Below are positions 3,983 through 30,719 of a DNA stretch of 51,417 bases, in pieces (position 1 is the first letter of the stretch; each line of letters opens with the position of its first letter). The notes under the pieces were generated by a model, which searched no databases, was not told the origin of the DNA, and saw only the letters and a program-made list of their open reading frames with translations. This stretch comes from an uncultured candidate division Zixibacteria bacterium (GTDB lineage: Bacteria; Zixibacteria; MSB-5A5; UBA10806; 4484-95), in the NCBI GenBank assembly GCA_963668625.2, contig CAXXKA010000007.1, positions 1 through 51,417 on the forward strand, read 5' to 3'. The position numbers were made by a program, and so were the translations under genes.

Positions 3983-6028
3983 ATGCAAAAACTGAATTTG
4001 AAACTCAAACCGAAGCTGATCGGCGCGTTTATGATTTGTGGTATTGTTCCGTTGGTTGCTGTGGCTTATTTCAGTATACAGAAAGCTAATGAAGGTATGA
4101 TGAAACAAGCCTTCAATCAACTTCAAGCGGTCAGACAAATCAAGGCCAATCAGATCGAAAGCTTTTTCGAGGACCGCATAAATGACCTGGAGGCTCTAGC
4201 TGACAATCCTTACACCAAATTTGCAATGATAGAACTCGGCAAAGCCGATATTTCAGCCAGAGCGAAAGGTTTCGAGGGATTGGAATTGTTGGATGAACCG
4301 AAATTCAAATCGGCTTACGATTCTTATAATGCGACATTCAAATATTATATGGATACATACGGGTATTACGATATCTTTTTGATATCTCCCGAGGATGGTG
4401 ATGTTTTTTTCACGGTTGCCCTGGAGAACGATTTTGGAACGGAATTATCCCACGAGAAACATCACCTGGCATCAACCTGGCGTGAGGTCCTGGACGATGG
4501 CCGACCGGTGCTTTCGGATATGGCGCCATATGCGCCATCATTTGGCGCTCCGGCGATGTTCATGGCCTGTCCGGTAAACGATGACGGTAAAACTATCGGG
4601 GTTCTTGCCATGCAGATTTCCTCGGATGCCATAAATGTAATCATGCAGGAAAGATCGGGCATGGGAGAAACCGGCGAGAGTTATCTGGTGGGTTCGGATA
4701 AGCGAATGCGGTCGGATTCGTATCTCGATCCAGAGGGACATTCTCTTTTAGCCTCATTCAAAGGTTCCGTTGAACAAAACGGTGTCGATACCAAGGCAGT
4801 AAGGGAATCGATATCCGGCAACAACAATAGTGATATAATTATTGACTATAATGGCAATCCGGTACTTTCGGTATATGGCCCCTTGGAAATCGGTGAACAT
4901 ACCTGGGCCTGTATTTCGGAGATCGATCTGGCGGAGATCGAAAAGCCGATTAACGCGATCAGTAAAGCGATTGTTGGTATTGGCATTGTCGCCGGACTAT
5001 TAATTGCCGTTTTCGGTTTCATAGTGGCGATTGGAATTTTAAAGCCGATTAATAAAGTCGTCGATATGATAAAAGATGTTGCCCGGGGTGAGGGTGATTT
5101 GACTAAACGTCTGGCAGTCGATGCCAGAGACGAGATTGGAGATCTGGCAATGTGGTTTAATACTTTCATGGATAAACTTCATGATATAATTTCCAGGGTG
5201 GCCCGGAATACCGGACAGTTGGCCTCGGCGGCAACCGAGGTTTCATCCGCTGCCGAGCAGTTATCTACCGGCTCTAAAGAGCAAACCAATCAGACCGCCC
5301 AGGTTTCAGCCGCTATCGAGGAGATGACGGCGAGTATATTGGAAAGTTCGAAAAATACTTCCGAGGCGGCCGAAAAAGCCCGTGAGGCTTCCGATAAATC
5401 GCAAGAGGGTAGCAGGCTGGCACAGGATACCTCATCCGGTATGGATGAAATAGTTAGCTCGGCCTCGGTTACCGCAGGAAACATCAAGGATCTTTCCGGC
5501 AAGACTAACTCTATCGGTGAGATAATCAAGGTCATCGATGATATAGCCGATCAGACCAATTTGTTAGCGTTAAACGCCGCTATCGAGGCGGCCCGGGCCG
5601 GTGAGCAGGGACGAGGATTCGCGGTCGTGGCCGATGAGGTTCGTAAACTGGCCGAGCGTACCACGAAAGCCACTAAAGAGGTTGCCGAAACGATCAAAGC
5701 CATTCAAGCGGATGTTTCCTCTGCAAACGCACATATGGAAGAGGCCGGTGAAAAAGTCGGTAAGGGCAAAGATCTTGTCGAGCAGACCAACTCCTCGTTG
5801 AGCGAGATATATGGCTCGATTGAAGCGATGCAGGAAATGATGCGTCAGGTAGCGGCCTCCGCCGAAGAGCAATCCTCGGCCGCCGAGCAAATCTCTAAAA
5901 ACGTGGAAAACGTGGATAGGATATCCAAAGAATCATCCAGCGGGGCCGAACAGGCCGCCGCCGCCGCCGAGCAATTAAGCCGTCAAGCGGAGGATTTACG
6001 AACGATAATTGGCGGATTTAAGCTATAG
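3983..6028 (+). CDS. Methyl-accepting chemotaxis protein with dCache-type sensor
   Basis: TM-sensor-TM-HAMP-MCP signal domain. YGYYDIFLI and [12 protein letters not shown] motifs typical of dCache receptors. Confidence 0.95.
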
Positions 6029-6189
6029 TGATTTTCTGATTATTTGATCAACAGGCTACATCGCGGCGATACCCAAGGCGGAACAGATTGCATAAAATAG
6101 TATTAGTCTGGACGGGTCGCAGTGAAACGTAACCTGTTTGTCACTTGATGTCGGATCATTTACTTCAGGCTAAGATCCGGCGTTTTTTT

Positions 6190-6461
6190 CACTACTGTCC
6201 GGCCTTACCTTCTCGTTGAGAACTGCTGCTTCGCAACCTGGCTTGCCTGCCGGCAGAATGCTCATTCTACATGACTCAAGAAGACTGCCAAGCAGCGCTT
6301 GGAAACCAGGGAAACTAAGCCTTGCATCGACAGAACATATTAGGAAGGAAGTGGAGCGATATCCTGATACGCTAGCTACATATATTATATCGAAAAATGG
6401 TTTCCGCTAACAATTCCAATGAGAAATTAAGCAAATTACCGATAAACACTGGACACTAGTG
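6190..6461 (+). mobile_element. MITE family A, copy 3 (272 bp, longer variant)
   Basis: Ends CACTACTGTCCGG / CTGGACACTAGTG, collinear with the other copies plus ~17 extra bp. Flanks cgttttttt / atattttct are not a clean TSD. Confidence 0.88.
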
Positions 6462-6628
6462 ATATTTTCTATCGACAAAATCAGATAGCTCCTCAGAATG
6501 GCTGAGCATCGCAATGACCTACCGTTTTTTTGATGGAATCCTTTTGATCTTGACCGTAAAGACAATTTATGTTTATATATATAAATTGATACAATTTGAT
6601 AATTTAATTCAAAAGGAAAGGGGCATAC

Positions 6629-8986
6629 ATGTTCGCCCGCAAGTTATTGTATTTTTACATTATTATTATGCTGGGGCTAATATTTAGTTTTACCAGTGTT
6701 ATTACAGCTCAAGAATTAAAAGAAGCGCCTTTTTCAGGTAAGAAATTGGATGAATCAGGGATTTTCCAGGGGTATTTGCCCATACAGGTGGATTTGTCTC
6801 ACTTAAAGAATGCGAGAATTAACGATAACCTGACATTGGACTTACCTATTCGGTTTGACTGGCGGGAACATGGCATGGTAACCCCGGTGAAGAATCAGGG
6901 TAATTGCGGTAGTTGTTATGCGTTCGCTTTTTTATCGTGTTTCGAATCGAAAATTCTGATGCGGGAAGGGCAGTCTTACGATCTCTCCGAAAACAACGCC
7001 AAAGAATGCAACTGGTACGAATCAAGTTGCGACGGCGGCGCAGATTGGGCAATGGCCAGTTATTTAAACAGCTTCGGAACGGTACTCGAATCGAGCGACC
7101 CGTATGTTGACAGTGATGTTTCATGTAGCGGGTCAGCCCCGAAGAATAAAACGCTTCTTGAATGGAATATAATTTCATATGATTTAGCTCCGCCCGCTTC
7201 GATTTTAAAATACATTATAAAATCCCGTGGTCCCATTGTATCGTATATGTTTGCAGGTGATTCGAATAATCCCAATTGGAACCAGGAATTTTACGACTAT
7301 GACGGTTCATATACGATACATTACCAACCGTCCGAAGCTGCCGATGTAAACCATCTGGTAGCAATTGTCGGCTGGGATGACACCTTATCACATGACGGTG
7401 GCCATGGCGCCTGGATAGTGAAAAATAGCTGGGGAAATTCCTGGGGGGGGCCTTGTGGTTATGGTACCGAGGGTGGTTATTTTACAATTGCGTATAATTC
7501 GGCGCTAATCGGTCAGTACGCATCTTACATAGGTGATTACCAGGATTACGATGAGTATGGGCAAGCCTATAGGCATGATGAGGCTGGATGGAATTCGAGT
7601 TGGGGCGCCGACGGTTATCTATCGACCTGGGGGATGTGTAAGTATAACATTCCTGAAGATTGTATGTTGGACCGGGTCGAGTTTTGGACTAATGATGAAA
7701 ATACCGGTATCAGTATCGGAATTTATGATGTTTTTGATGGCAATGTACTTTCGGAGATGCTTGCGAATAAAAGCGGTTTGGTTTTTGAAAACCCGGGTTT
7801 ACATTCGGTACAGCTTGATTCGGCGATACGAATAACCGCAAATGACAATATATTCGTAGCGATTAAATTTACGAATACCAGCAATTATTTTCCTGTGCCC
7901 GCCGATAATCTTGGCCCAAGTCAGGCATATCAGTCGTACTTGAGCCTGAATGGAAACGCCGGTTCCTGGCTTGATCTCGGAAGTGAATATCAAAGCGATG
8001 TAGGCATCCGTATACGCTGCACTAACTCGGCTCTGTACCTGAGCGCGCCTGATGGCAACGAAAATATTAGCGCAGGAACAAGCAGGGAGATAACATGGTC
8101 GAGCCTCGGTGACAATATCGATAACGTGAAATTGGAATATACCTCCAATGACGGCGATGACTGGTACACGATCGAATCATCCGTACCCAACAACGGTTCG
8201 TACGATTGGATAGTGCCATATACCATTTCGAATGACTGCCGGGTGCGTATCTCGGATGCCGAGGATGGCGTGCCCTCGGATGAAAGCGCCGGCTCATTCG
8301 CGATTTATTGCCCGGTATGGCCGGGTGATCTGGATGCCAACGGGCTCGTTGACGCCGAAGATATTCTGCCATTAGCGGAATATTGGTATCGTACCGGCCC
8401 GGCAAGGTCCGATGTCAACTTTAGCTGGTCGGGAAAAGATTCCTCTCCCTGGGATGATATCCTGATAACATACGCGGATGCCGATGGTTCGGGGCGTGTC
8501 GATATTTCGGATTTCTTCCCGATATGCATAAACTGGAATAGATCGCACGGTGACGCGCTGGCCTTGAAATTTCAAAAACGAGACTATGATATTGAGGGTA
8601 ATCGCGAGGCGCTCATGAGACTTTATGATCAAGTCTCGGATGCCGAGACTGGAGCCGGCCTGAAGATACGAGAGTATATATCGAAAATTCTTGGTATTCA
8701 ATTACCGTTGATATTCGAATTGGAAGACTCATACCCGAATCCGTTTAACAGCACCACGGTGATAAAATACACCCTGCCCGAGGCCTCGGGGGTAAATCTT
8801 TCGATTTACAATATACGAGGGCAATTGGTGAATACGCTAATCGATGAATACGAACAACCGGGCAGATACCAGGTTAAATGGAGTGGCCTTAATTTCGATG
8901 GCGAAACCGTAGCCAGCGGAGTTTATTTCGTGAAACTTCAAAACGAAAATAACACATCGGTGAAGACCATGTCGTTAATCAAATAG
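6629..8986 (+). CDS. Secreted papain-like (C1A) cysteine peptidase with lectin-like, Ig-like, dockerin-like and FlgD/T9SS-like C-terminal domains
   Basis: Signal peptide. QGNCGSCYAF (catalytic Cys), NHLVAIVGW (His), KNSWG (Asn). Duplicated Ca-loop GDLDANGLVDAED / ADADGSGRVDISD. YPNPFN...VASGVYFVKL tail. Confidence 0.9.
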   Translation: MFARKLLYFYIIIMLGLIFSFTSVITAQELKEAPFSGKKLDESGIFQGYLPIQVDLSHLKNARINDNLTLDLPIRFDWREHGMVTPVKNQGNCGSCYAFAFLSCFESKILMREGQSYDLSENNAKECNWYESSCDGGADWAMASYLNSFGTVLESSDPYVDSDVSCSGSAPKNKTLLEWNIISYDLAPPASILKYIIKSRGPIVSYMFAGDSNNPNWNQEFYDYDGSYTIHYQPSEAADVNHLVAIVGWDDTLSHDGGHGAWIVKNSWGNSWGGPCGYGTEGGYFTIAYNSALIGQYASYIGDYQDYDEYGQAYRHDEAGWNSSWGADGYLSTWGMCKYNIPEDCMLDRVEFWTNDENTGISIGIYDVFDGNVLSEMLANKSGLVFENPGLHSVQLDSAIRITANDNIFVAIKFTNTSNYFPVPADNLGPSQAYQSYLSLNGNAGSWLDLGSEYQSDVGIRIRCTNSALYLSAPDGNENISAGTSREITWSSLGDNIDNVKLEYTSNDGDDWYTIESSVPNNGSYDWIVPYTISNDCRVRISDAEDGVPSDESAGSFAIYCPVWPGDLDANGLVDAEDILPLAEYWYRTGPARSDVNFSWSGKDSSPWDDILITYADADGSGRVDISDFFPICINWNRSHGDALALKFQKRDYDIEGNREALMRLYDQVSDAETGAGLKIREYISKILGIQLPLIFELEDSYPNPFNSTTVIKYTLPEASGVNLSIYNIRGQLVNTLIDEYEQPGRYQVKWSGLNFDGETVASGVYFVKLQNENNTSVKTMSLIK

Positions 8987-8997
8987 AGGTACATATA

Positions 8998-9510
8998 ATG
9001 AATATTTCAAGAATAGTAATATTGGCATTGGTGATTCCGGTGATAATGATTTGCGGCTGCAAGAAAAGCTCTGATTCCGGAGATTCTAGTTTCGCGCTTC
9101 AGCTGACTCCTCAAAGAGCAGAGCCGGATGTATACGAGGAATTCACACTGACTCTCGAGATTTCCGATGTTCGAGACATGTTCGTAATCGGATTCAATTT
9201 GCTGTACGATCATTCGAGGTTGAGATTATCCGAGACGAGTACGTCATCTGGTGGAATACTGGGTAATGACATCATAAGTTTCACCGAGGAAATAAACGGT
9301 GGAATCGGTGTTAGCATCGGTCGAACTCAATCTGCCGGAGATGATAACGTGTCTGGTTCAGGCAATATCTGTGAATTTACGTTTTTAGCTATCGGCATGG
9401 GAGAATCTCAGGTAGAGTTGAATAATGTCACGATATTAGACGAGGACGGGAGCAGTAACACGCAGATATCCGAATCGAATGTCGTATCAGCAGAGGTGAA
9501 TGTCGATTAA
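8998..9510 (+). CDS. Lipoprotein with cohesin-like domain
   Basis: Hydrophobic N-terminus with lipobox ICGC, Ser-rich linker, then beta-rich pattern FTLTLEI..GFNLLYD..L..SGSGNICEFTF..G.G...VEL..VTILD typical of cohesins. Confidence 0.75.
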   Translation: MNISRIVILALVIPVIMICGCKKSSDSGDSSFALQLTPQRAEPDVYEEFTLTLEISDVRDMFVIGFNLLYDHSRLRLSETSTSSGGILGNDIISFTEEINGGIGVSIGRTQSAGDDNVSGSGNICEFTFLAIGMGESQVELNNVTILDEDGSSNTQISESNVVSAEVNVD

Positions 9511-9519
9511 ATCGGTGAA

Positions 9520-9704
9520 TATCCGGCCTTTCGGGGCAAATCACGAATCGGGAAGATAAGCCGGATCATACGGTCGAGTCATGATCCGGTTCGCTTTAAC
9601 GGCTAAAGCTTTTAAAGCGTCAAACCGACCGAAAGGCATAGTCAGTTTGCTATCCGAAGGAGTTTTTATCAAACCCGATTTTAACTCTGATGAGATCGTG
9701 GATA
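9520..9704. ncRNA. Candidate structured ncRNA (multibranch junction), family unknown
   Basis: Nested closing stems enclose three to four abutting hairpins (details in findings). Confidence 0.45.
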
Positions 9705-9804
9705 ATCAAAAATCTTGCGCAATCGCCCCGTATATATTAATCTAGAGGCCGACATGAGCGCGCGATATGTCCTGTTTGATTCGTATGATTAATTCGGAGG
9801 CATT

Positions 9805-10689
9805 ATTCCATACCTGGGCGAAATTTTTTCACTGACAACTGCTATAACCTGGGGCATTGCCGTTATTCTATTTAAAAAAAGTGGCGAGTCGGTTCACCCG
9901 ATAGCTTTGAACCTGTTTAAAAATGTCATGGCTGTCATATTGTTAGTGCCCACGATGTACTTATTCGGTGAGTCGTTTTTATACAATGTGTCCGGCTATG
10001 ATTATTTCCTTCTGTTTATTAGCGGTGCGCTGGGCATAGGGATTGCCGATACGTTGTTTTTCATGAGTTTGAATTTGGTTGGCGCATCCCTGATTGCCAT
10101 CCTCGATTGCCTGTACAGTCCATTCGTGATAGCGCTTTCTTTCATCTTTTTAGGCGAGAGCCTGACTTTAACCCAGATGCTGGGTGTGGTATTAATTATC
10201 TCGGCTGTTCTGACAGTAAGCCGTCCCAAAGCCCGGGCTGGAATTAGCGGTAAAAACCTGGTATTAGGGATACTGTTCGGCGCTCTGGCGATGGCAGCGA
10301 ATGCGGCCGGTATAGTGATGGTAAAACCGATCCTGGAAAAATCTCCGTTGCTCTGGGTAACAGAGATGAGATTGTTAAGCGGTTCGATCATTCTGGCGTT
10401 GGTGCTTATTTTTCATCCGCAGCGTTACAAAATAATCAATTCGCTTCATGCTATCGGAAGCTGGCATTATACATTGTTAGGATCGTTTTTCGGGGCGTAT
10501 CTTTCGATGGTGTTCTGGCTAGGCGGGATGAAGTATACTCAAGCTTCGATATCCGCCTCGCTGAATCAAACAAGCAATGTTTGGATTTTCCTAATGGCCG
10601 CCTTGTTTTTAAAGGAGTCTTTGAATAAGCATAAAATTATCGCTATAGTGATGGCTGTGGTGGGTGTTTTTATTGTTACCTTTGGTTGA
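9805..10689 (+). CDS. DMT/EamA family transporter (start uncertain)
   Basis: About 10 TM segments with EamA repeats. The frame is open and EamA-like upstream of the called TTG (PYLGEIFSLTTAITWGIAVILFKK) back to a TAA at 9790-9792. Confidence 0.85.
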   Translation: MPYLGEIFSLTTAITWGIAVILFKKSGESVHPIALNLFKNVMAVILLVPTMYLFGESFLYNVSGYDYFLLFISGALGIGIADTLFFMSLNLVGASLIAILDCLYSPFVIALSFIFLGESLTLTQMLGVVLIISAVLTVSRPKARAGISGKNLVLGILFGALAMAANAAGIVMVKPILEKSPLLWVTEMRLLSGSIILALVLIFHPQRYKIINSLHAIGSWHYTLLGSFFGAYLSMVFWLGGMKYTQASISASLNQTSNVWIFLMAALFLKESLNKHKIIAIVMAVVGVFIVTFG

Positions 10690-10988
10690 CTGTTACGGCA
10701 GGTTTAAAATTATCTAACTTATCTATTATCAATATCTTATACTATACTTTTCACTATATGTTTAAGCTAAAAAAATATTGCATTATGTTGAAAATTATAT
10801 ATATTTATTTCACTAGATCACGATTCTCAATAGAATGATTTCAGCTCGATTTCTGTTTAAAGTTTGGCGATAAGACAGTAGTTCTAACCTTATTATTTTT
10901 TGTAAACCTTTAGCAATGGAGGTGATGCTCATTTAATTAATTTTTAATAGAGTTGTTGTGTCTATTAAACTATCTCTGGGGAGTCCTT

Positions 10989-13900
10989 ATGAACAAACTT
11001 CAACTTACTCTGGTTGCCGCAATTGGTTTAATCATGATGATATGTTTAAACGCCTCCGCGGGAACCTACAGCGACGATTTCCATCAATATATTTCCGACA
11101 GGCAATCGGATGATTATGTCGGAGCTATTATCTCGATGGCAGACAGGGTTGATCTTGGTGAGCTGAAAGCCGAACTCTATGCCCGCAAAGCCAACAGGCA
11201 GCAGTGGCATGAGGCGGTCGTTTTAGCTCTTCAAGAGAAAGCCACCTATACTCAATCATCAATTCTAGCACAACTTGATGATTTACAGCGTCAGGGCCTG
11301 GTCGAAAGCTATCGCGGCCTGTGGTTGGGCAATATAGTGATTGTCGAGGCTACGCCCGAGGCATTATCTGTCCTGGTGCAAAGAGATGATGTAGATCAGA
11401 TTAATCCCGATTATATCCTCGAAGGTGATAAGCCGATAATCCGCGAGGAAGAGGAAAGACTTATTGCCACTGTCGAACCCGGTCTCTCGGCTATTCGTGC
11501 CGATGAGGTCTGGGCGATGGGATTCACCGGTGAAGGCCGTCTGGTAAGCCATCTCGATACGGGTGTTGACGGCGCTCATCCGGCGTTAAATGCCCGCTGG
11601 CGCGGTTACGATTCCCGCTATTCGGAAAACCCGGAATGGGCCTGGTTCGATCCGGTGACTAATACTACTTTCCCGTTCGATTCCGGCTCTCATGGTACTC
11701 ATACTATGGGCACGATATGTGGCCTGGGTGAGGCTACCGGCGATACGATCGGTGTGGCGTTCGGCGCCGAGTGGATGTCTGCCGGAGTTATCGATCGTGT
11801 TTCCATAGAACAAACGGTTGCTGATGCGCTACTGGCGTTCCAGTGGGTGGCGGACCCCGATGATAATCCCTCCACTGTTTGGGATGTTCCGGATGTGTGC
11901 TCCAATTCCTGGGGAGTCACCACCAGTCACGGCTACCCTCCGTGCGATCCGACATTCTGGGATGTTTTGGATGATTTAGAGGCAGCCGGTGTCGTGGTGG
12001 TATTTGCCGCCGGTAACGAGGGGCCGACTGCCAGCAGTTTAAGACGTCCCTCCGACAGGGCTACAGATGATTTGAACACGTTCTCGGTTGGAGCGGTGAA
12101 CGGTAACGATCCCAGTTTTCCGATTGCCAGTTTCTCCTCCCGTGGGCCATCATATTGCACGCCGGATGGCGAGCCTACTTTCAAACCCGAGGTCTCAGCG
12201 CCGGGCGATGGTGTCAGAAGCTCGATACCGGGCGGCGGTTACCAGGGGGGCTGGAGCGGCACCTCGATGGCCACTCCGCATATCGCGGGTGTTATCGCCT
12301 TGATGCGTCAGGCTAACCCGAACCTTACCACGGATCAGATCAAACAAATCCTTCTGGATACCGCTACCGACCTGGGAACCGAGGGTGAGGATAACGATTA
12401 TGGTATGGGCATCGTGGATGCCTACGAGGCCGTGCAACGAGCGCTGGCCTATCTCGAGGGTTGGGGTACGTTAGCCGGACAGATCACCGATGAGGCCAGT
12501 AGCGATCCTATTCACGGCGCTACAGTCTCGGTGCTCGATCGTCCCTGGCAAGCTACCTCCCGCGCTGACGGCTGGTATTACCTGTTTATGCCCGCCGATA
12601 CTTTGTACGATATAAAAGTAGATTACTCGCCTACTCATCTGCCGATATATGATGTTCAATCGGTAACGGAAAACGAGACAACGTATGTCGACTACGCTCT
12701 TGAGGGCAAGGTCTCGGTTACTTTAATCGCCTCGTTCGGCAATCCCGAGGACATTAACTATCGTTCGTTCTTCCTTAAAGGAAGTTGGGATAACGATGGT
12801 TTCTACGATGATTCGTGGTCGGGAGATTATATCGAAATAGCGGACGATGGCGAAGCTCCGGATGAAACCGCCGAGGACGGCATTTTTACCGGCCATCTGC
12901 TGTTGGCCAGCGATGAACTTAACACGTATAGCTGGGCAATATTCTCTGAAAATTACGGTGGTGATGACGCTCGCCTCGATGAGGGCGCCGATTTTGACAT
13001 ACCCGATTTGAATCCGCCGGTTGTTCCTACCCTGGAGGTAAATCCATCGGGTACGGAGAATAATTTCGTGTTCACCGCGGTCGGTGATAACGATTTATAT
13101 CTCGATCTGATGCCGGGCGTGGATAACAATGCCCGGAAATGGGGCGCCTCGGATTCGCTTCTCGAGGGCTTGACTTATACATTCAATTTCCAGACGATGC
13201 ATTCGGATCAGGTTACTTACGGTTCCGGCGGTGTCGGCGGCGCTGATATTCAGTTCACGCCCGAGGTCACCGGTGCGTACGATATCATTTTCAACGATTA
13301 TGATGATTCGTACCTGATCCAATTGACCGGTACCGAAGGGCCGCCAACGTTCGTGTCCGCGCAAAGCGGCTACGATGGTCATATCCCCGTGGGCTGGTTA
13401 CCTCCCGGTACTGTTGAAAGCCAGGAAGTAGCTTATGATGACGGCACGTTGGCAAACGGCTATTACTACTACGACTATACTTTCCTGATGGCAACGATGT
13501 TCGTGCCGGAAAGTTATCCGATGACTATCGACTCGGTGATGATACATGTGCTTACCGAGGGCGATGAGTATTGGCCCTGGCCGGACGGTAACCACGATCC
13601 TGTTGGAATTTACATATTCGTCGATGACGGCTCCGGTTATCCGCAGCCCGATCCGGTATTTTATACCGAAACCACCTGCGAACTCGGCCAGTGGATAAGG
13701 GTCGATGTCGATGAGGTGCTGGTCTCCGAGGGTAATTACTGGGTTGCGATGGCAAACCTCGCCAACGCCGCTAACTACGATGGTATAGGGGTGGACGTCT
13801 CAACCGATTATCCGGCCAACAAGTGGGCCAGGACGGATGGAGGCGCCTGGGGACTTCAGGATACATACGCCGGCGACCATATGATAAGGGCGAAGATATT

Positions 13901-16900
13901 CGGCGCTGATGCCGCCTCGTGGGTTGGTTATGATGATGCCAAGCCCGCCGACCTTATCGCTCCACAAATCAACAGCCTTCCCCAAAATCCCGGTCAGGTG
14001 GCCGGTACCGGTATGGTACGGAGCAAACCGAATCAATCTGACAGGCTCGCGTATTATCCACACATAATATCCGATCCGCCGGTTGTGCTGGAAACCGAGG
14101 TACTTGCCGGTTATAATCTCTACCGCGATACCTCGCCCGCGCCGTTCGATCGTGATATGCAGATCAATTCCGAGCTTATCACCGATACCTGGTATGATGA
14201 CTGGGGAGCCGATCCGTATGGCCCGATCGATAACGGCGTTCTGTATTACTATCAGGCCAGCGCCGTATACGATATCGGCGGCGGTGATTTCGTCGAGGTA
14301 GGGCCCTCGAACGAGACTACCGGTATGGCCGAAAATCATCCACCGGCAGCGCCTTACGAGCTGACCTCGGAAACGGTTGATCGTAATGTCAATCTCGAAT
14401 GGCTGTATGACGGCGCCTACGATTTCGACTATTTCAATATTTATCGTAAGCTAATGCCTTACGGTGAATGGGAAAATGTCGGAACCTCGGTTACGAACGG
14501 CTATACGGATGTTATCGAGGAGGGTGGTGATGGCACTTACGGCTATCGTGTTGCCGCTGTAGATAACGGCGATCCCGCTCTGGAGTCGGAATTCTCGAAT
14601 ACTATTTACGCTCTCGTTGGTACTCTTCCGCCCAATGGCTTGGTTGCTTTAAGCGGTTTCGAGTTTGCGGTGCCGCTGCGCTGGTTGTTGCCCGGTTCCT
14701 GGAGTTCGGGAGACAATACGCATGTGGATCCCGAATACCTGCCGGTATTAACCAGCGAATTCAATACTCTCAATGATGGTTCGGAAATAGAACGCGCATT
14801 CAAAGGTCTGACCGGTCCGGCGAATGATCCTGTCGTGCTCGATCAGGGTGGCCCGGATGAATTCGGTTATACCTGGATTGACTCGGATGAACCGGGAGGT
14901 CCGGTTTACGATTGGCGCGATATTACCGATGTAGGCGAGCTGATACCGATCACCAATGATGACCATAATATCGGCCCGATAGATATCGGTTTCGATTTCC
15001 CATTCTATGGTGAAACTTTCAGCACGTTCAATATTTGCTCCAACGGTTGGATTTCATTTACCAGTACCAATGCTGATTATTACAATCAACCCTTACCTGA
15101 TCCTGCAATGCCTTTGAATATGGTTGCGCCTTTCTGGGATGATATGTATCCGCCCAATGGCGGCGAGTACTGGTACTATTCTGATGGCTCCGAATGCGTG
15201 ATATCGTTTATCAATATACCGCATATATCGGAAGGCGGGCCATATACCTACCAGATTATCCTGCGGGCCACCGGGACGATTATCTACCAGTACGGGGAGA
15301 TGAACGATCCGTTGAATACCTGCACGGTCGGCATACAAAACGGTGATGGAACGATCGGCTTACAGGTCGTTTTCGATGCTGAATATATCCATAGCGATAT
15401 GGCTATCAGGCTGGGTACCGGCCCCGAGGGCGTGCCGCCGGTTCACTATAATCTATATCGTTCGACATCAAGTCCGGTGCCGATCGATCCGGGATACCTG
15501 TTGACCAGCGATATACCGGGTGAGGAAGTTTCTTATACCGACATGAGCGGTATTGTCAATGGCCAGACTTATTACTATGCCATGACAGCCACCTGGGCCG
15601 ATTCGGCCGAGTCGCCCGCCTCTAATGAGGCCGACGCGACTCCCGCCAATCATGAGCCGGAAGCTCCTACGGATCTCGAGGCGGCGGTTGATTATTTCGA
15701 CGTTAACCTTACCTGGGAATTCAACGATGTCATGGGTGATTTCGATCATTACAACATCTATCGTAAGTTAGTCGAAGAACCTGATTTCGAGCTTATCGGC
15801 GCAAGTGATGTTGATAGCTATACCGATGAGATCACCATAGGCGAGGATGGTGTTTACAATTATATCGTAACCGCCGTCGATAACGGTGACCCGGAACTTG
15901 AGTCCGCTAATTCCAATATGGCGTTCGCGCCGGTAGGCAATTTACCGCCGCTGAACCTGGTAGCTACCGATAATCAGGATTCCCATGTTCCGTTGCGGTG
16001 GTCGGCTCCGGGAGTTAGTCCATGTACGACCCTGGCCTGGGATGACGGAACGCTCGCCAACGGCTACTACTACTATGCCTCCGCCGATATCATGGCTAGC
16101 CATTTTATGGCGACCGCACCGGTTCAGATTTGCACTCTCTGGGTACATATACTCACCGAGGGTGATGAATACTGGCCGTGGCCCGATGGCAACCACGATC
16201 CTGTCAGGGTGACTGTCTGGGAAGGCGATGGCGAGGGATATCCCTCCACGATGATCGCCGAGCAGGTTGGCACCGCCGAGTATGGCGAGTGGCTGCGGAT
16301 TGTTTTGGATTCACCGGCAATATGTACTACCGATAATTTCTGGATTGGCGTGAATAATCTTTCGGACTCCGGGCCATACGATGGCTTGGGATTGGATGTA
16401 TCGACGGACTACCCCGAGCACAAATGGGCATTTGCCAGTGGCTCCTGGGGAGTTCAGGATACCTACGCCGGCGATCATATGATTCGCGTGGCAATAACCT
16501 CCAGTGGAGCCGCAGAAGTGCTTTCCGAGGAGATGCCGCTTAGCAGACATATGGATCAAGCTAAGGCGCAGGCTTTTTCCAAGCAAGCTTTGGAGAATAG
16601 TCCTGACAACCCGATGCCTTACGATACCGAGGAGATGCTGGGTTACTATATCTACCGCGATATATCGCCGGGCGTGCCTATCGATGATGCTTATCGTATT
16701 ACCGAGGATTACCTGCTGGAGACTTCCTATGATGACGATGATGTCGAAAATGGCTTGGACTACTACTATATTGTCGTAGCAGTGTACGATAACGACGGCG
16801 ATATCGAATTCTCAGAGCCATCCAACGAGGAAATGGGTACGCCGATGGCGCCGGGTGTTCTTTCGGTAGACCCGACCGAGATCGACACCTCGGCCTATTT

Positions 16901-18176
16901 GGGAAGCGAGATCATGAATGTCCCGATGACATTGACCAATAGCGGCGGATTACCGGTCGAATTCGAAATCGTCGTGGTTGGCGATCATGCCGCCGGCGAT
17001 CTTCCCTACCGTTATGAAACCGCCCAGGCCAAGTTCTCCAGTATATCTCATGACTACGAGAAATCGACTGTTGAACCTCAATCGGATAACTCGCCGGTGA
17101 TCACCGATTTCGGCGGCCCGGATGAGTTCGGCTACACCTGGATCGATTCGGATGAGGAAAACGGCCCGCATTATGACTGGGTTGATATTACCGGCGTAGG
17201 CGAGGCTCTTTCCATGTCGGATGACGACAACCAGGGGCCGTTCGGTATCAATTTCGATTTCCCGTTCTACGGCCAGGAATTCAACACGCTCAGGATTTGC
17301 TCGAACGGCTGGATTTCGTTTACCAGTAGCAATACATCATATAGCAACTACGGAATTCCGGGGACAAGCGCGCCTGAAAATCTGGTCGCGCCGTTCTGGG
17401 ATGATATGGATCCTACGTCAGGCGGAATGATCTATTACTATTCCTCGGATGATTCCGCGATAGTGTCGTGGGTTGATATGCCGCATTACGATGAGGGTGG
17501 ACCATACACCTATCAGATTATCCTCACCTCGGCCGGTACTATCACTTTCCAGTATATGTACATGTACGAGCCGCTAAACAGCGCCACGATCGGTATTCAA
17601 GATGCCTCGCAGACAGTTGGTTTGCAGATTGCTTTCGATCAGTATTATATACATGATGGGATGGCTGTCGAAATCAACACGCCGTGGCTGGATGTCAGCG
17701 AGTATGATGGCGAGGTTATGCCAGGAGAAGATTTCGACCTGTACGCTATCCTGGATTGTACCATGCTCGAACATGGCGTTCATACCGGTATGATTGCGAT
17801 AAGCTGCTGGGATATGAATCACGATCTGCCGTTAATGGAAGTTCCGGTCATACTTGATATGATGACCGATATCGACGATAATTTCGTACTATTACCGCAA
17901 TCGTTCGCGCTGGATCAGAACTACCCTAATCCGTTCAACGCCAAAACGGAGATCAGGTATGCTCTGCCGGTCGAAAGCGATGTCAGGCTGGAGGTCTACA
18001 ACGTACTTGGCCAGAGGGTTTCCAAGCTGGTTGACACCAAGCAGCAGCCGGGTTACCACACGTTTGTCTGGGATGGTACCAACTCCAGCGGCGAGGTTGT
18101 CGCCTCGGGTATGTATATGTACAAGTTGATTACCTCCGAGGATGTATTCGTGAAGAAGATGCTACTTCTGAAATAA
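10989..18176 (+). CDS. Giant secreted S8 (subtilisin-like) serine peptidase with repeated accessory modules and FlgD/T9SS-like CTD
   Basis: Signal peptide from ATG 10989. Triad LDTGVDGAHP, HGTHTMGT, GTSMATPHIAG. FN3-like segments, two duplicated domain types, NYPNPFN...VASGMYMYKL tail. Confidence 0.93.
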   Translation: MNKLQLTLVAAIGLIMMICLNASAGTYSDDFHQYISDRQSDDYVGAIISMADRVDLGELKAELYARKANRQQWHEAVVLALQEKATYTQSSILAQLDDLQRQGLVESYRGLWLGNIVIVEATPEALSVLVQRDDVDQINPDYILEGDKPIIREEEERLIATVEPGLSAIRADEVWAMGFTGEGRLVSHLDTGVDGAHPALNARWRGYDSRYSENPEWAWFDPVTNTTFPFDSGSHGTHTMGTICGLGEATGDTIGVAFGAEWMSAGVIDRVSIEQTVADALLAFQWVADPDDNPSTVWDVPDVCSNSWGVTTSHGYPPCDPTFWDVLDDLEAAGVVVVFAAGNEGPTASSLRRPSDRATDDLNTFSVGAVNGNDPSFPIASFSSRGPSYCTPDGEPTFKPEVSAPGDGVRSSIPGGGYQGGWSGTSMATPHIAGVIALMRQANPNLTTDQIKQILLDTATDLGTEGEDNDYGMGIVDAYEAVQRALAYLEGWGTLAGQITDEASSDPIHGATVSVLDRPWQATSRADGWYYLFMPADTLYDIKVDYSPTHLPIYDVQSVTENETTYVDYALEGKVSVTLIASFGNPEDINYRSFFLKGSWDNDGFYDDSWSGDYIEIADDGEAPDETAEDGIFTGHLLLASDELNTYSWAIFSENYGGDDARLDEGADFDIPDLNPPVVPTLEVNPSGTENNFVFTAVGDNDLYLDLMPGVDNNARKWGASDSLLEGLTYTFNFQTMHSDQVTYGSGGVGGADIQFTPEVTGAYDIIFNDYDDSYLIQLTGTEGPPTFVSAQSGYDGHIPVGWLPPGTVESQEVAYDDGTLANGYYYYDYTFLMATMFVPESYPMTIDSVMIHVLTEGDEYWPWPDGNHDPVGIYIFVDDGSGYPQPDPVFYTETTCELGQWIRVDVDEVLVSEGNYWVAMANLANAANYDGIGVDVSTDYPANKWARTDGGAWGLQDTYAGDHMIRAKIFGADAASWVGYDDAKPADLIAPQINSLPQNPGQVAGTGMVRSKPNQSDRLAYYPHIISDPPVVLETEVLAGYNLYRDTSPAPFDRDMQINSELITDTWYDDWGADPYGPIDNGVLYYYQASAVYDIGGGDFVEVGPSNETTGMAENHPPAAPYELTSETVDRNVNLEWLYDGAYDFDYFNIYRKLMPYGEWENVGTSVTNGYTDVIEEGGDGTYGYRVAAVDNGDPALESEFSNTIYALVGTLPPNGLVALSGFEFAVPLRWLLPGSWSSGDNTHVDPEYLPVLTSEFNTLNDGSEIERAFKGLTGPANDPVVLDQGGPDEFGYTWIDSDEPGGPVYDWRDITDVGELIPITNDDHNIGPIDIGFDFPFYGETFSTFNICSNGWISFTSTNADYYNQPLPDPAMPLNMVAPFWDDMYPPNGGEYWYYSDGSECVISFINIPHISEGGPYTYQIILRATGTIIYQYGEMNDPLNTCTVGIQNGDGTIGLQVVFDAEYIHSDMAIRLGTGPEGVPPVHYNLYRSTSSPVPIDPGYLLTSDIPGEEVSYTDMSGIVNGQTYYYAMTATWADSAESPASNEADATPANHEPEAPTDLEAAVDYFDVNLTWEFNDVMGDFDHYNIYRKLVEEPDFELIGASDVDSYTDEITIGEDGVYNYIVTAVDNGDPELESANSNMAFAPVGNLPPLNLVATDNQDSHVPLRWSAPGVSPCTTLAWDDGTLANGYYYYASADIMASHFMATAPVQICTLWVHILTEGDEYWPWPDGNHDPVRVTVWEGDGEGYPSTMIAEQVGTAEYGEWLRIVLDSPAICTTDNFWIGVNNLSDSGPYDGLGLDVSTDYPEHKWAFASGSWGVQDTYAGDHMIRVAITSSGAAEVLSEEMPLSRHMDQAKAQAFSKQALENSPDNPMPYDTEEMLGYYIYRDISPGVPIDDAYRITEDYLLETSYDDDDVENGLDYYYIVVAVYDNDGDIEFSEPSNEEMGTPMAPGVLSVDPTEIDTSAYLGSEIMNVPMTLTNSGGLPVEFEIVVVGDHAAGDLPYRYETAQAKFSSISHDYEKSTVEPQSDNSPVITDFGGPDEFGYTWIDSDEENGPHYDWVDITGVGEALSMSDDDNQGPFGINFDFPFYGQEFNTLRICSNGWISFTSSNTSYSNYGIPGTSAPENLVAPFWDDMDPTSGGMIYYYSSDDSAIVSWVDMPHYDEGGPYTYQIILTSAGTITFQYMYMYEPLNSATIGIQDASQTVGLQIAFDQYYIHDGMAVEINTPWLDVSEYDGEVMPGEDFDLYAILDCTMLEHGVHTGMIAISCWDMNHDLPLMEVPVILDMMTDIDDNFVLLPQSFALDQNYPNPFNAKTEIRYALPVESDVRLEVYNVLGQRVSKLVDTKQQPGYHTFVWDGTNSSGEVVASGMYMYKLITSEDVFVKKMLLLK

Positions 18177-23643: not shown

Positions 23644-23861
23644 GTAAAAATTTGCCTCAATCCTAAATAATTTCATCTAGGATAATATAAGCTACTTGTT
23701 ATGAAGCAAAAATATCATAGCGGTACTACTCGAGCTATTTACCTATAGGTTAACCACCCGGCGAAAGGTTTGTTTTTATAATTAACTAAACCAGCTAATA
23801 ACCGATAGTTTAGCTAGAGTGTTTGGATGTTCACAGCAGTTTAGTTTTAAAGGTCTATTTT

Positions 23862-24932
23862 ATGTCATCAAACAGGTTAGAAAGTCAGGGTAGCTCCACT
23901 ATCGACAATAGCGAAAGCAGATTAAGTTTAACTGATGCAATCGAAGTTTTAAGCAGTCGCTGGAAATTTATTGGTATGTTTGCTTTTGCTTGTGCTGTTA
24001 CTACCGCTGCGATTACTTTATTTATCCCGAATAAGTATACTGCCAAATCGACTATACTCCCCACGACCAACGATTACCAGACAAGCGGGTTGATGTCCCT
24101 GGCCGAGGGTATACCGGGACTGGATATGATGGGTTTGAATCTGGGTGGTCAATCATCCTCAGCGTTGTTCCCACAGGTGCTTAAAAGCCATCAACTGGCG
24201 GAAAAAGTACTGACAAGGAAATATACTTATATCAACGGCGATGATTCGGTCACGCAGGATTTGTATGAATATTTCGAGGTTGACAACGCTGATGAAGCTT
24301 ACGAACAATTGCATAAGAATTCTGTAGTCGAATATGATAAAAAAACGGGTGTGGTAGGAATTTCCGTAACTACCGAAAACGCCGAGCTTTCGGCCCGGGT
24401 GGCTAATTACTTTATCACCTGCCTCGATTATTTCAATATGAATCAACGTAGAACCGGCGCCGATATGAACCGGGATTTCGTCGAAAAACGTATAAGTGAG
24501 GCGGAGGGCGAGCTTGAACGCGCGGAGGAGGCGTTAAGGGAGTTTCGTGATAATAACTTGAACTACTACAGCTCCACCGACCCGGAATTACTCATGATGA
24601 ATGACAGGTTAACCCGGGACGTACAGATACAGAACCAGGTTTACCTGACTCTAAAACAGCAATACGAGATCGCTACGATTCAGGCTAAAAAGGAGTTGCC
24701 GGTTATTCAGATACTTGATCATGCCGTACCTCCTTATTTGAAAAGCAGCCCGCCTCGTTCCAAAATAACGATACTGGGATTTGTACTTGGTTTACTGGTA
24801 GCCGCCTGCTATTCGTTTTTGAAATATCTTTATACCGAAAGATATAAATCCCAAAACATGAAAGAATTCATCAGCAAACTTCGTTTCGTCAATCCCTCAC
24901 CCCAGACCGAACAGTCCGAATATGTTCGATAA
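23862..24932 (+). CDS. Wzz/GumC-like polysaccharide chain-length determinant
   Basis: N- and C-terminal TMs, PNKYTAKSTILP, coiled coil, IQILDHAVPP..KSSPPR motif. ATG 23862 preferred. Confidence 0.88.
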   Translation: MSSNRLESQGSSTIDNSESRLSLTDAIEVLSSRWKFIGMFAFACAVTTAAITLFIPNKYTAKSTILPTTNDYQTSGLMSLAEGIPGLDMMGLNLGGQSSSALFPQVLKSHQLAEKVLTRKYTYINGDDSVTQDLYEYFEVDNADEAYEQLHKNSVVEYDKKTGVVGISVTTENAELSARVANYFITCLDYFNMNQRRTGADMNRDFVEKRISEAEGELERAEEALREFRDNNLNYYSSTDPELLMMNDRLTRDVQIQNQVYLTLKQQYEIATIQAKKELPVIQILDHAVPPYLKSSPPRSKITILGFVLGLLVAACYSFLKYLYTERYKSQNMKEFISKLRFVNPSPQTEQSEYVR

Positions 24933-26487
24933 ATTGAAAGGCTTTTTTAAGACCACGGCTATTTATGGGGTGGTGGGTAGCATCAGGTCTTTCAGCGAAT
25001 TCCTTCTCCTGCCGTTATATGCCCGTTTTCTCACACCGGAAGATTTCGGGACACTGGATATCTTGATGATTTATGTGATGGTTGGTATGGTACTCGCGGT
25101 TTTGGAGATGAATAACGCAGCTTTCAGGTTTTATTTCGATAAAGATAGTTTTAATCATCAGCAAGAAGTTATATCCTCCTCATTTATTGCAACATCATTA
25201 AACGGCTTCGTGATTTTCCTAATATCCATCTGGCTTGCGGAGAAATTATCGCTTTTGTTATATGATACTCCCGATAATTCGAACCTGTTTTATATAGCGG
25301 GATTAATAATATTCCTAAATTCGATATGTACCGTGCCCTTTAACCTGTTAAGGATTCGTAATAAACCTGCTCAATACACTATCCTGTCCCTGGCGCTGGT
25401 AAGTATATCGATAGGATGTACTGTCGTTCTTTTAGCGAAATATAAAATGGGTGCAGAAGGTATACTGCTGGCTAAAGCACTGGCGTTCATACCAATCGTT
25501 CTCATTAGTTTATTTGTTAGCAGACATCATATCAGGATCAGGATAAATTTTAGAATGATTGGCAGTATGCTAAAGTATTCTTTACCCCTTATTCCTGCTG
25601 GTATGGCTATCTGGGGAATAAATGGCCTTAATCGGATATTCATGATTCACTACCTCTCTTTAGAGCAAATCGGTTATTTCTCTCTGGCATCAAAGTTTGT
25701 CGTGGTGATTACGCTGAGTGTGATAGCCTTTCAGCTTGCCTGGCCGCAATTCGCTTTTTCTAACATGAACACTAAAAACGTAGCTCGAACATTTTCGCAA
25801 GTCTTTAATGTTTGCGCCGCTCTTGGTATTTGGCTGGTACTATTTATTACGATGTTCTCGGGAAATTTTATCAATATTGCCATGAGCAAGAAATTCCTGC
25901 CGGCTATAGGTGCGGTAATGCCGTTGGCTACCGGTATGTTTTTTTACGGTATTTTTTATTTTTTCACGACGGGCGCTATTATCGAGAAGAAAACATCATC
26001 AATACTGTTTCCGCTTATTTCGGCTATGGTATTTAATATCGTAATGAATATTATCGTTACACCGGTATACGGATTCAAAGGTACGGCCTGGGTTACTCTA
26101 GCCTCGTATTTTATTATGGCCATTGCTATGTTTTTGATGATACGAAATTCGAAATATATAGAGTTGAATTATGTGAAAATTTTCAGATTGGCGGTGGCAT
26201 CATCGATAGTATTACCGGTAGCGATACTTTTATCATATGAAAACAGCGTCGCGTTTCTGGTCGTAAAATCAGCTTTCTTTTTGAGTTTTCCATTTATTCT
26301 TTGGCTTATAGGATTCATCGATAGAATAACTGCAACGGCTGTGGCTGATATACTAAAACGAAAAACCAATAGCAAAATCATGTTCGTTAAAAAATCAAAC
26401 TCAGCAATGGAGGCAAACCCGGCAGATCGAATAGTAGATAGAAATAGCCGACAACAAATGACGTCACCTCTAGACCAGTCAGGTTGA
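24922..26487 (+). CDS. Wzx-type oligosaccharide flippase
   Basis: About 14 TMs. LLLPLYARFLTPEDFG and MLKYSLPLIP motifs. Confidence 0.9.
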   Translation: MFDKLKGFFKTTAIYGVVGSIRSFSEFLLLPLYARFLTPEDFGTLDILMIYVMVGMVLAVLEMNNAAFRFYFDKDSFNHQQEVISSSFIATSLNGFVIFLISIWLAEKLSLLLYDTPDNSNLFYIAGLIIFLNSICTVPFNLLRIRNKPAQYTILSLALVSISIGCTVVLLAKYKMGAEGILLAKALAFIPIVLISLFVSRHHIRIRINFRMIGSMLKYSLPLIPAGMAIWGINGLNRIFMIHYLSLEQIGYFSLASKFVVVITLSVIAFQLAWPQFAFSNMNTKNVARTFSQVFNVCAALGIWLVLFITMFSGNFINIAMSKKFLPAIGAVMPLATGMFFYGIFYFFTTGAIIEKKTSSILFPLISAMVFNIVMNIIVTPVYGFKGTAWVTLASYFIMAIAMFLMIRNSKYIELNYVKIFRLAVASSIVLPVAILLSYENSVAFLVVKSAFFLSFPFILWLIGFIDRITATAVADILKRKTNSKIMFVKKSNSAMEANPADRIVDRNSRQQMTSPLDQSG

Positions 26488-26625
26488 TTTTGTCAAATCA
26501 ACTACAGGAATGATAAATCATGAATAATATGTTAATTATTTTTAATGATTTCAGAAGTCTTAAACCTATTAACCGATTTAAGAAATATCAGTATGGGATG
26601 CTCGAGTTAACGATTTTCCGAGGGG

Positions 26626-27978
26626 ATGCAGATGCCGATTATTAAAGCGAATAAATTAAATTCGTTCCCTATCCCAGCCAAAAAAAATAATAAACTCAGG
26701 ATAGCGATATCTCATGAATTCGTTGAGCTATACCGAGGCGACAAAGATTTGCGTGTTGGCAAGATATTGTGCCAGGATTATGGGTGTGAGATCGTTCATC
26801 TTGGCACTGATGTAGCCAGCACAGCTGATTCGCATTTTTTCAATACTGAAATGTATCCCGTTGATATGGTCGGCCAACTTCCCCCGGAGTATTACCTGCT
26901 ACTCATGAAAACCAGAATTATATACCATCGAAAGGGAAATGTTGGTATGGGGGGATATTTCAGGTTCACGCCGGGAATTATCAAATATCTAAAACGCTGG
27001 AAACCGGATTTGATATTCGAGAATCCGTTTCTAACTTTGTCTCCTCGTTCGTATATGACTTATGCCGTTTCGAGAATACTTGATATACCGTTGGTGTATA
27101 TAGACTGTGGCGATATCATCCATGACTTAAAATTAAAACACAAGATAGTATTACCCTTCGAAAAACCTGTAGCCAATCACGCGGCAGCGGTTATCACATA
27201 CAACAATGAGGGTAGAACCAGATTCATGAGAAAGTACGATTACCCACCTGAAAAAATACACGTAATTCCCAAACCTATAGATACCAATATGTTTAATTCC
27301 TTTGCCAACACTGATAAATTCAGGAGCCAATATGATCTGAACGATAAATTCACTGTTGCTTATTTCGGCCGGTTGTGTACTAACAAGGGAGCTAAAGATT
27401 TGCTTGAAGCTGCGGAAATTCTACGCTACCGCGGTTTGTCGGATAAAGTGCAAATAGTATTTGTCGGCGGAAACGTGGAAAGCGGCCAGTCTGCGGAATT
27501 CAAAAGCTATTATGAAAATTTAAAGCTTCCTAATATAACGTTAACCGATATGATACCACATAAACGAATGCCTGAAGCTTATGCGGCGGTTGATGTAGCT
27601 GTATTTCCAGACGTGACTAATCCGCCCGGTTTTTCCACTGTATTGGCTGAAAGTATGGCAGCCGGCTTGCCTATTATCATCGGTATTAAGGGATGGGAAA
27701 GCGCTGTGCCTATTGTTGATGGAGAAAGCGGGTTGATAATAGAGGCAGCCAACCCGAAACAGATAGCCGATAGTATCGAAACCTTAATGGGTAACCATAA
27801 TTTACGTAGCTCGATTGGCGAAAACGCCGCCAGGTACGCACGCGATGAAATGGACTACGATCTTATAGTAAGTAAATACTATTCCATTTTTGAGAACATA
27901 TTGAATAGAAACGGATCGAGGAAGAATTCGAGGCATGTTGAACGTTTCAGCAACAATACTGAAAAATCAGCCGTATAA
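26626..27978 (+). CDS. Glycosyltransferase family 4
   Basis: YFGRLCTNKG and FSTVLAESMAAGLPII GT-B motifs. Confidence 0.9.
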   Translation: MQMPIIKANKLNSFPIPAKKNNKLRIAISHEFVELYRGDKDLRVGKILCQDYGCEIVHLGTDVASTADSHFFNTEMYPVDMVGQLPPEYYLLLMKTRIIYHRKGNVGMGGYFRFTPGIIKYLKRWKPDLIFENPFLTLSPRSYMTYAVSRILDIPLVYIDCGDIIHDLKLKHKIVLPFEKPVANHAAAVITYNNEGRTRFMRKYDYPPEKIHVIPKPIDTNMFNSFANTDKFRSQYDLNDKFTVAYFGRLCTNKGAKDLLEAAEILRYRGLSDKVQIVFVGGNVESGQSAEFKSYYENLKLPNITLTDMIPHKRMPEAYAAVDVAVFPDVTNPPGFSTVLAESMAAGLPIIIGIKGWESAVPIVDGESGLIIEAANPKQIADSIETLMGNHNLRSSIGENAARYARDEMDYDLIVSKYYSIFENILNRNGSRKNSRHVERFSNNTEKSAV

Positions 27979-30704: not shown

Positions 30705-30719
30705 TCAATAGGGACAACT

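Follow-up and report, generated by a model that had tools for sequence, protein, structure and literature searches.

The DNA analysed here (the window) is 51,417 nucleotides long and comprises positions 1-51,417 of the forward strand of contig CAXXKA010000007.1 from an uncultured candidate division Zixibacteria bacterium (assembly GCA_963668625.2). It contains two closely spaced genes on the plus strand that are predicted to encode the two halves of a cohesin-dockerin pair (Table 1). The first open reading frame (ORF) encodes a 785-aa C1A (papain-family) protease with a dockerin-like module and a C-terminal type IX secretion system (T9SS) sorting tag, and the second a 170-aa lipoprotein that consists almost entirely of one cohesin domain. 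The initial annotation of the window had located both ORFs and their spacing correctly: the stop codon of the protease gene (TAG, 8984-8986) is separated from the lipoprotein gene by a gap of 11 nt. A ribosome-site-like motif overlaps this stop codon, which makes translational coupling of the two genes possible. No terminator was called between or directly behind the two genes, a promoter scan performed at chance level (8 found vs 8.7 expected), and the GC content shows no island at the locus. Single contigs span positions 5599-10500 in each of two runs, which represent at most one sample; neither the domain fusion in the protease nor the adjacency of the genes is therefore a visible misjoin.

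Table 1. Features of the cohesin-dockerin locus in window coordinates
Feature	Position	Strand	Description
T9SS cargo gene, 785 aa	6629..8986	+	signal peptide, C1A protease, lectin-like, Ig-like (immunoglobulin-like), hairpin-dockerin, type A C-terminal domain
Putative Sec signal peptide, ~residues 1-27	6629..6709	+	from sequence; cleavage site judged by eye
C1A papain-family catalytic domain, residues 72-290	6842..7498	+	PF00112, 116.7 bits
Lectin-like domain, residues 314-460	7568..8008	+	PF18560, 50.6 bits
Ig-like spacer	8048..8308	+	weak Kre9/KNH-like match at residues 474-536, 19 bits, under cut-off
Dockerin-like core	8312..8545	+	Ca loop 1 D567-D578, helix, ~25-residue Trp/Arg-rich insert, Ca loop 2 D617-D628, helix
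Two extra helices, residues ~656-668 and ~675-688	8594..8692	+	modelled; hallmark of the subtype whose cohesin sits on a separate lipoprotein
T9SS type A C-terminal sorting domain (FlgD-Ig/Por tail)	8705..8983	+	TIGR04183, 41.3 bits (> 23); PF18962, PF13860
Ribosome-site-like AGAGGT, 8985-8990	8985..8997	+	overlaps the upstream stop codon; 7 nt before the lipoprotein ATG
Lipoprotein, 170 aa	8998..9510	+	signal peptide II, Cys21 (codon 9058), short Ser/Asp linker, single cohesin ~residues 33-170

In its modelled fold the lipoprotein is a single-domain cohesin, and a dockerin is its predicted partner. It matches the Cohesin family PF00963 at 30.9 bits (cut-off 24.1), and its model has nine strands and a predicted local distance difference test score (pLDDT) of 93.4. 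All of the 20 best structural rows are cohesins (Z 16.4-11.4), led by 6kgc_A with Z 16.4 and a root-mean-square deviation (rmsd) of 2.2 over 133 aligned residues, and are followed by pilin-type folds at Z 9.3. The best Foldseek row is 2xdh, a non-cellulosomal cohesin from Archaeoglobus (E 5e-9), and the 22 best matches in a sequence-profile search of the PDB are cohesin or scaffoldin entries. The cohesin assignment of the initial annotation is thus borne out. A word-indexed homologue search with the lipoprotein recovered only itself among 57 candidates, a blank that reflects low sensitivity, as genome searches found many relatives. The lipobox-like Cys21 was read by eye and by regular expression; the same expression finds a lipobox in 103 of 110 non-redundant cohesins paired with a dockerin module in relatives, and two of the seven misses are truncated at the 5' end. 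The 170-aa lipoprotein has no SLH match. On cohesin strands 3 and 6, alternating small or polar residues are conserved, with an entropy of 1.3-2.3 bits vs 2.9-3.6 bits on the other sheet, the sheet faces being assigned by strand alternation rather than from coordinates and the assignment of strand 8 being doubtful.

The module near the C-terminus of the protease appears dockerin-like, with complete Ca loops, and is predicted to bind calcium and a cohesin. The duplicated Ca-binding loop-helix noted in the initial annotation is present from V563 (8315) to W636 (~8536). Its two loop motifs are both complete, with D/N/S at positions 1, 3, 5, 9 and 12, and an insert of some 25 residues lies between them; in each loop, the Asp residues at positions 1 and 12 are 97-98% conserved (weighted) across the 110 pairs. 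Against the whole protease, Pfam Dockerin_1 (PF00404) scores 21.3 bits at residues 565-629, just under its cut-off of 22.9, and in a genome-wide Pfam search the same stretch reaches 25.1 bits and several orthologues also pass. The model of the module and its C-terminal extension (pLDDT 95) runs in the order loop-helix, extended Trp/Arg insert, short helix, loop-helix, two long helices. The last two, overlooked in the initial annotation, extend the module to ~8594-8692, ahead of the tag. The four best Foldseek rows are entries of cohesin-dockerin complexes (e.g., 2y3n_B, rmsd 2.2 A, template modelling score 0.72 over the target), and no match to the whole module with its helix pair was found among solved structures.

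The protease that carries the module has an intact active site (Q90, C96, H242 and N266, by alignment to cathepsin L and motif positions) and qualifies as a type A T9SS cargo by its TIGR04183 match of 41.3 bits (cut-off 23) together with a signal peptide recognised by eye. As initially suggested, the tag and the dockerin-like module would provide it with separate signals for export and anchoring. Close homologues of the protease carry Zixibacteria labels at source, in line with the host. A paralogue in the same genome is 45% identical over the protease and lectin domains and has the tag, and lacks the Ig and dockerin parts; moreover, the module is present in just 3 of 119 close homologues of the C1A protease. 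Since the paralogue has only the tag and so few homologues have the module, we infer that the dockerin cassette was grafted onto the window protease. The same cargo with the module and an adjacent lipoprotein occurs at a locus labelled Cloacimonadota (L139). The tag-only paralogue (C8:155292-156986, minus strand) is itself convergent with a gene for a 145-aa lipoprotein-like product (C8:154671-155108, plus strand), the start of which we take to resemble the chagasin-type cysteine protease inhibitors.

Conservation of the gene pair is evident among relatives. At eight of the ten closest loci the cohesin lipoprotein gene lies 3-12 nt behind a gene with module and tag, and the remaining two loci end at contig edges, one of them inside the lipoprotein gene. 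A narrow cohesin profile, trained on 7 downstream lipoproteins, gave 59 matches in 285 genomes of the phylum, and 44 of these share their strand with a module of the window subtype no more than 7 kb away. This count takes in the strongest 132 of the 153 module matches; 18 weak ones among the 150 listed were dropped. The cohesin gene is downstream in 16 cases and upstream in 28; because only downstream lipoproteins were used for training, the upstream order is independent of the profile. Broader profiles, which are partly circular in that 42 of the pairs trained them, yielded 77 linked loci (40 cohesin-first, 22 convergent and 15 dockerin-first) with 150 of 166 matches counted. Linkage follows the score of the cohesin: a linked module accompanies 45 of the 51 matches that reach 120 bits, 31 of the 48 that score 85-119 bits and a single one of the 51 with less than 85 bits. 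The 285 genomes, in which kin are not independent, divide into 86 with both parts, 13 with the module only, 7 with the cohesin only and 179 with neither. Where pairs are duplicated (three in genome G240, two in G243), every pair has its own cohesin. At one locus (G253, L005:1500-2700) an in-frame TAG interrupts the module and the cohesin gene enters a run of N, indicating either a broken gene or an assembly error.

Signals of co-evolution were compared over the pairs. Distances for the dockerin core correlate with those for the cohesin at r 0.65 vs 0.56 for the tag, and the trees share 51 vs 42 of 107 splits, respectively; this congruence is compatible with binding and with mere linkage alike. 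Residue-level dockerin-cohesin covariation in 110 pairs (effective number 88) has a top z of 9.0, above the maximum of the fully shuffled null (7.5) but inside clade-preserving nulls with means of 8.2-9.8. Complex prediction of the two domains with alignments scored 0.02 and 0.04 vs a mark of 0.32, with the controls not folded, and carries no weight either way.

The cargo joined to the module varies widely, and includes C1A, C10, DUF6055, BNR, CotH, beta-helix/PKD, C39-like and LamG proteins. Since cargo is swapped so freely among relatives, the pair is not specific to proteases. The same finding bears on the idea that the lipoprotein is a beta-sandwich inhibitor of the neighbouring cysteine protease: the arrangement of a small lipoprotein gene right after one for a papain-family protease is familiar from protease-inhibitor operons, but the orthologues adjoin non-protease cargo and follow the dockerin rather than the protease, and the fold is that of a cohesin. 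We consider an inhibitor scarcely credible and rejected it on these grounds.

Beyond the phylum, scans of the best 80 of 535 and the best 80 of 243 matches, in which ten modules stayed unclassified and some loci repeat training sequences, revealed two architectures. Among the matches listed, 51 of 68 long-tail modules are followed by a cohesin in the same chain, only 2 of 68 have the helix pair and none (0/68) has an adjacent lipoprotein cohesin. By comparison, 80 of 84 short-tail modules have the helix pair and 45 of them all are accompanied by a neighbouring lipoprotein cohesin, and no in-chain cohesin follows the module. The metagenome set alone gives the same picture, with an adjacent lipoprotein cohesin at 0 of 26 long-tail vs 30 of 49 short-tail modules. 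The short-tail paired loci listed include records of Krumholzibacteriia, Marinimicrobia, Cloacimonadota, Electryonea and Latescibacterota. One-chain tails in the order cohesin-dockerin-cohesin-tag (L127, L129, L131, L137, L171 and others) are attached to a very wide range of cargo in records of KSB1, Calditrichota, Latescibacterota and Balneolales and could, from their domain order, bind in cis or polymerise. The family is large, with 4651 cluster representatives at E <= 1e-10 when both architectures are pooled, and Pfam often misses its members.

The initial annotation had proposed a minimal two-gene system. That description holds in the lineage of the window; in several other families the pair terminates a six-gene operon (L083:1194-11126 and L081-L095), in which a PEGA Ser/Thr kinase, two TPR/CsgG-like proteins and a barrel-like protein of about 375 aa accompany the cohesin lipoprotein and a module-bearing beta-helix/PKD cargo. 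At some convergent loci (L108:137-5400, L113:162-8052) the cargo gene comes after type VI secretion-like genes (Pfam matches to VasE/TssK and TssG) and a double-GTPase-like gene; none of these has a match in the genome of the window.

Because the pair persists through inversions, exchanges of order and cargo, and duplications, and is fused where no separate partner exists, cohesin-dockerin binding is its simplest account. A reading without any interaction would make the pair a relic of a split dockerin-cohesin gene that is copied as a block, with the helices taking the place of the lost cohesin and capping the dockerin, which would act only as a Ca-stabilised spacer. One-chain forms are indeed common in other phyla, the helix pair occurs where an in-chain cohesin is absent, 54 of 132 modules lack a cohesin within 7 kb, and the tag, which is not expected to bind cohesin, tracks it as well. 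Three gene orders, lipoboxes in nearly all paired cohesins, joint presence and absence, and retention through cargo swaps are nevertheless hard to explain unless selection acts on the pair, and we regard the relic as improbable.

Dockerins and cohesins were also counted across the genome. At E <= 0.01 Pfam yields 24 matches for dockerin and 10 for cohesin, and a local profile of ordinary C-terminal dockerins finds 71 ORFs, which do not include the window module. None of the 71 ends in a T9SS tag, though 213 ORFs in the genome carry one. Profiles of the window-subtype dockerin match the window module alone. The narrow cohesin profile likewise matches only the window lipoprotein, and the broader one adds three weak matches (21-29 vs 123 bits). 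Among the 24 closest genomes, the same 9 contain the cohesin and the dockerin subtype, whereas ordinary dockerins occur in all 24, which points to a dedicated, one-to-one pair that stands apart from the 71 ordinary dockerin proteins. The initial annotation had suggested that the cohesin could also dock other dockerin enzymes, and the excess of 71 dockerin ORFs over 10 cohesin matches would suit such a general hub. However, in 15 of the 24 closest genomes ordinary dockerins are present and the cohesin was not found, the ordinary-dockerin profile does not detect the window module, and there is a separate cluster of cohesins elsewhere in the genome. The hub was therefore rejected as very unlikely: the cohesin follows its own dockerin subtype. 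The separate cluster (C10:242758-276142) contains tag-bearing cohesin proteins beside dockerin proteins of 5816 and 2128 aa; together with the 71 tag-less dockerin ORFs it gives the impression of a second system in which the logic is reversed.

The reading that we favour, and think probably correct, is that T9SS cargo is tethered at the cell surface by protein-protein contact with the cohesin lipoprotein. The last 225 residues of the protease and the next gene would constitute a portable cargo-retention cassette. Sec would take the protease across the inner membrane and, by virtue of its C-terminal tag, the T9SS across the outer one; the tag is probably cut off by the PorU sortase, as in studied systems (PMC11611037). 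Since the dockerin-like module lies just inside the tag, it would stay on the mature enzyme after cleavage. There it would bind Ca2+ and engage, without a covalent bond, the one cohesin that the co-translated lipoprotein carries; the lipoprotein would thereby keep the enzyme on the outer membrane, most likely facing the outside. As the initial annotation supposed, the host is a diderm, and it has outer-membrane T9SS parts: genes for SprA, PorU, a PorV-family protein and LpxA are all above cut-off, the last indicating a diderm envelope.

Several observations weigh against tethering. The structural resemblance of the module to dockerins is weak: the Foldseek E values are 0.3-1.0, and the top structural row (2y3n_D, Z 3.5, rmsd 2.2, 47 aligned) ties with an unrelated helical protein. 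In the model, the insert and the extra helices could cover the usual dockerin binding helices. Besides the unlinked modules in the phylum, for some of which fragmented assemblies may be responsible, 26 of 99 dockerin-bearing genomes have no linked pair and 39 of 84 short-tail modules among the matches listed have no adjacent lipoprotein cohesin. Covalent lipid anchoring may already be available to the cell, as it has PorU and also a PorZ-like gene of full length, the latter scoring 213 bits and so falling short of the 260 cut-off. GldM has no match in the genome, a search whose control was also silent everywhere; GldK reaches 82 bits, far below its cut-off of 350; and the barrel-like protein of the six-gene operon has no match there either. 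Finally, the lipoprotein export signal K-(D/E)2 or Q-A-(D/E)2 after the lipidated Cys, defined for Bacteroidetes only (PMC5080379), is absent from the window lipoprotein and present in 5 of 103 paired lipoproteins.

Surface exposure thus finds no support in the sequence and is the weakest step of the tethering model. If the lipoprotein faced inward, binding would be periplasmic, and the lipoprotein would act as a cargo-specific pilot, chaperone or pre-export holding site that, in the larger operon, could report the state of the cargo to the Ser/Thr kinase. All of the linkage evidence fits this possibility equally well, the larger operon does encode a membrane kinase with PEGA along with two TPR/CsgG-like proteins, and the rarity of the export signal agrees with it. 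On the other hand, that signal is defined for Bacteroidetes, some paired cohesins are borne on long FN3 or LRR stalks suited to display (L088, L107), and binding as tight as that of cohesins and dockerins would hinder export. A periplasmic role seems unlikely to us, if the most serious of the alternatives to surface tethering.

A wider proposal seems conceivable, if somewhat short of probable. Many FCB-type (Fibrobacteres-Chlorobi-Bacteroidetes) diderms might retain T9SS cargo by a second means besides the route by sortase and lipopolysaccharide (LPS): the distinct hairpin-dockerin and a cohesin on a surface lipoprotein would act in parallel to it, non-covalently and on specific cargo. The cassette would have arisen from a split one-chain cohesin-dockerin-cohesin tail, been grafted on unrelated cargo, and be orthogonal to tag-less dockerins that, in the same cell, dock on tag-bearing cohesin scaffolds.

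Other parts of the window also concern secretion and the cell envelope. About 1.4 kb downstream of the pair, 10953-18176 encodes an S8 protease of 2407 aa that combines FN3-like repeats and two NIDO-like stretches with a T9SS tag; it has no dockerin match. A PEP-CTERM protein (37898-38617, minus strand) points to an exosortase-type sorting route in the genome too. ORFs resembling chain-length, flippase, glycosyltransferase and ligase proteins, as judged by eye, form an apparent polysaccharide biosynthesis cluster at 23823-33792. At position 9874 the second contig is one base shorter in a run of A, and in the window assembly the EamA transporter ORF (9907-10689) may contain a frameshift close to its start.

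In the current view, T9SS cargo ends up bound covalently to a lipid or is released. If the tethering model is true, capture of one chosen cargo by a lipoprotein cohesin would be a third fate, cohesin-dockerin anchoring would reach from Gram-positive cell walls to outer membranes, and an orthogonal pair of small, easily expressed domains would be useful in surface display and designer enzyme complexes. This significance is tempered by the fact that non-cellulosomal pairs are already known and that binding is here predicted. We found no description of a lipoprotein cohesin paired with a dockerin-bearing T9SS cargo, and no paper on dockerins or type IX secretion in Zixibacteria, in a literature search that left subscription papers and supplements outside.

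The proposed system shares the type A tag, SprA, PorU and PorV with the T9SS anchoring by PorU and A-LPS (anionic LPS) as described in the available text of PMC11611037. The same source reports type B cargo held by PorP-like partners, which is a parallel in that a cargo-specific partner ensures surface retention; a PorP-like partner is a barrel that recognises the tag, whereas the cohesin lipoprotein proposed here would bind to a module in the interior of the cargo. Tethering of peptidases by cohesins and dockerins in diderms has been proposed in silico before, as a cellulosome-like complex in Ca. Stygibacter (Williams et al. 2021, PMC8542988) and as the 'planctosome' (Andrei et al. 2019, PMC6461901). 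As far as the accessible parts of these reports describe, both proposals involve large multi-domain scaffoldins, anchored by a C-terminal domain or a lamin tail, and enzymes that end in a dockerin; in the window it is the dockerin partner that bears the tag, and a small lipoprotein supplies the cohesin. On the same reading, the 71 tag-less dockerin proteins of the genome are closer to these proposals than the window pair is.

A cellulosome was rejected for the locus, which has a single-cohesin lipoprotein and a protease cargo instead of a multi-cohesin scaffoldin with a cellulose-binding module and glycoside hydrolases. Cohesins and dockerins are found outside cellulose breakdown in Archaeoglobus fulgidus (2xdh) and in NagJ/NagH of Clostridium perfringens (2ozn) as well; 2xdh matches the window cohesin at Z 16.3, and the structures that best match the window module include the dockerin of 2ozn (Z 3.2). 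Unlike the window pair, they are not diderm lipoproteins and have no link to T9SS cargo. The only mention of the Archaeoglobus pair in the available text of PMC12484212 is of its engineered use on E. coli. The nearest parallels in working are OlpA and OlpC of Clostridium thermocellum (3ul4, 4dh2), in which one cohesin on an envelope anchor likewise takes a dockerin protein, and to whose structures the window cohesin fold matches at Z 15.3 and 15.0. Both are single-enzyme anchors. OlpA is counted among the SLH-bearing secondary scaffoldins in the available text of PMC4788478. By comparison, the window pair has a lipid anchor rather than SLH, a diderm host, a T9SS-tagged cargo and a dedicated gene pair; identity is 11-13%, and the window dockerin has the insert and two extra helices. 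The window pair is thus a variant of non-cellulosomal single-cohesin anchoring that works like OlpA/OlpC and, having no SLH and a diderm host, is not a member of that group. To this theme the locus adds evidence of cargo grafting, the helix-pair switch, and the separation of a cohesin-dockerin pair from a pool of 71 ordinary dockerins.

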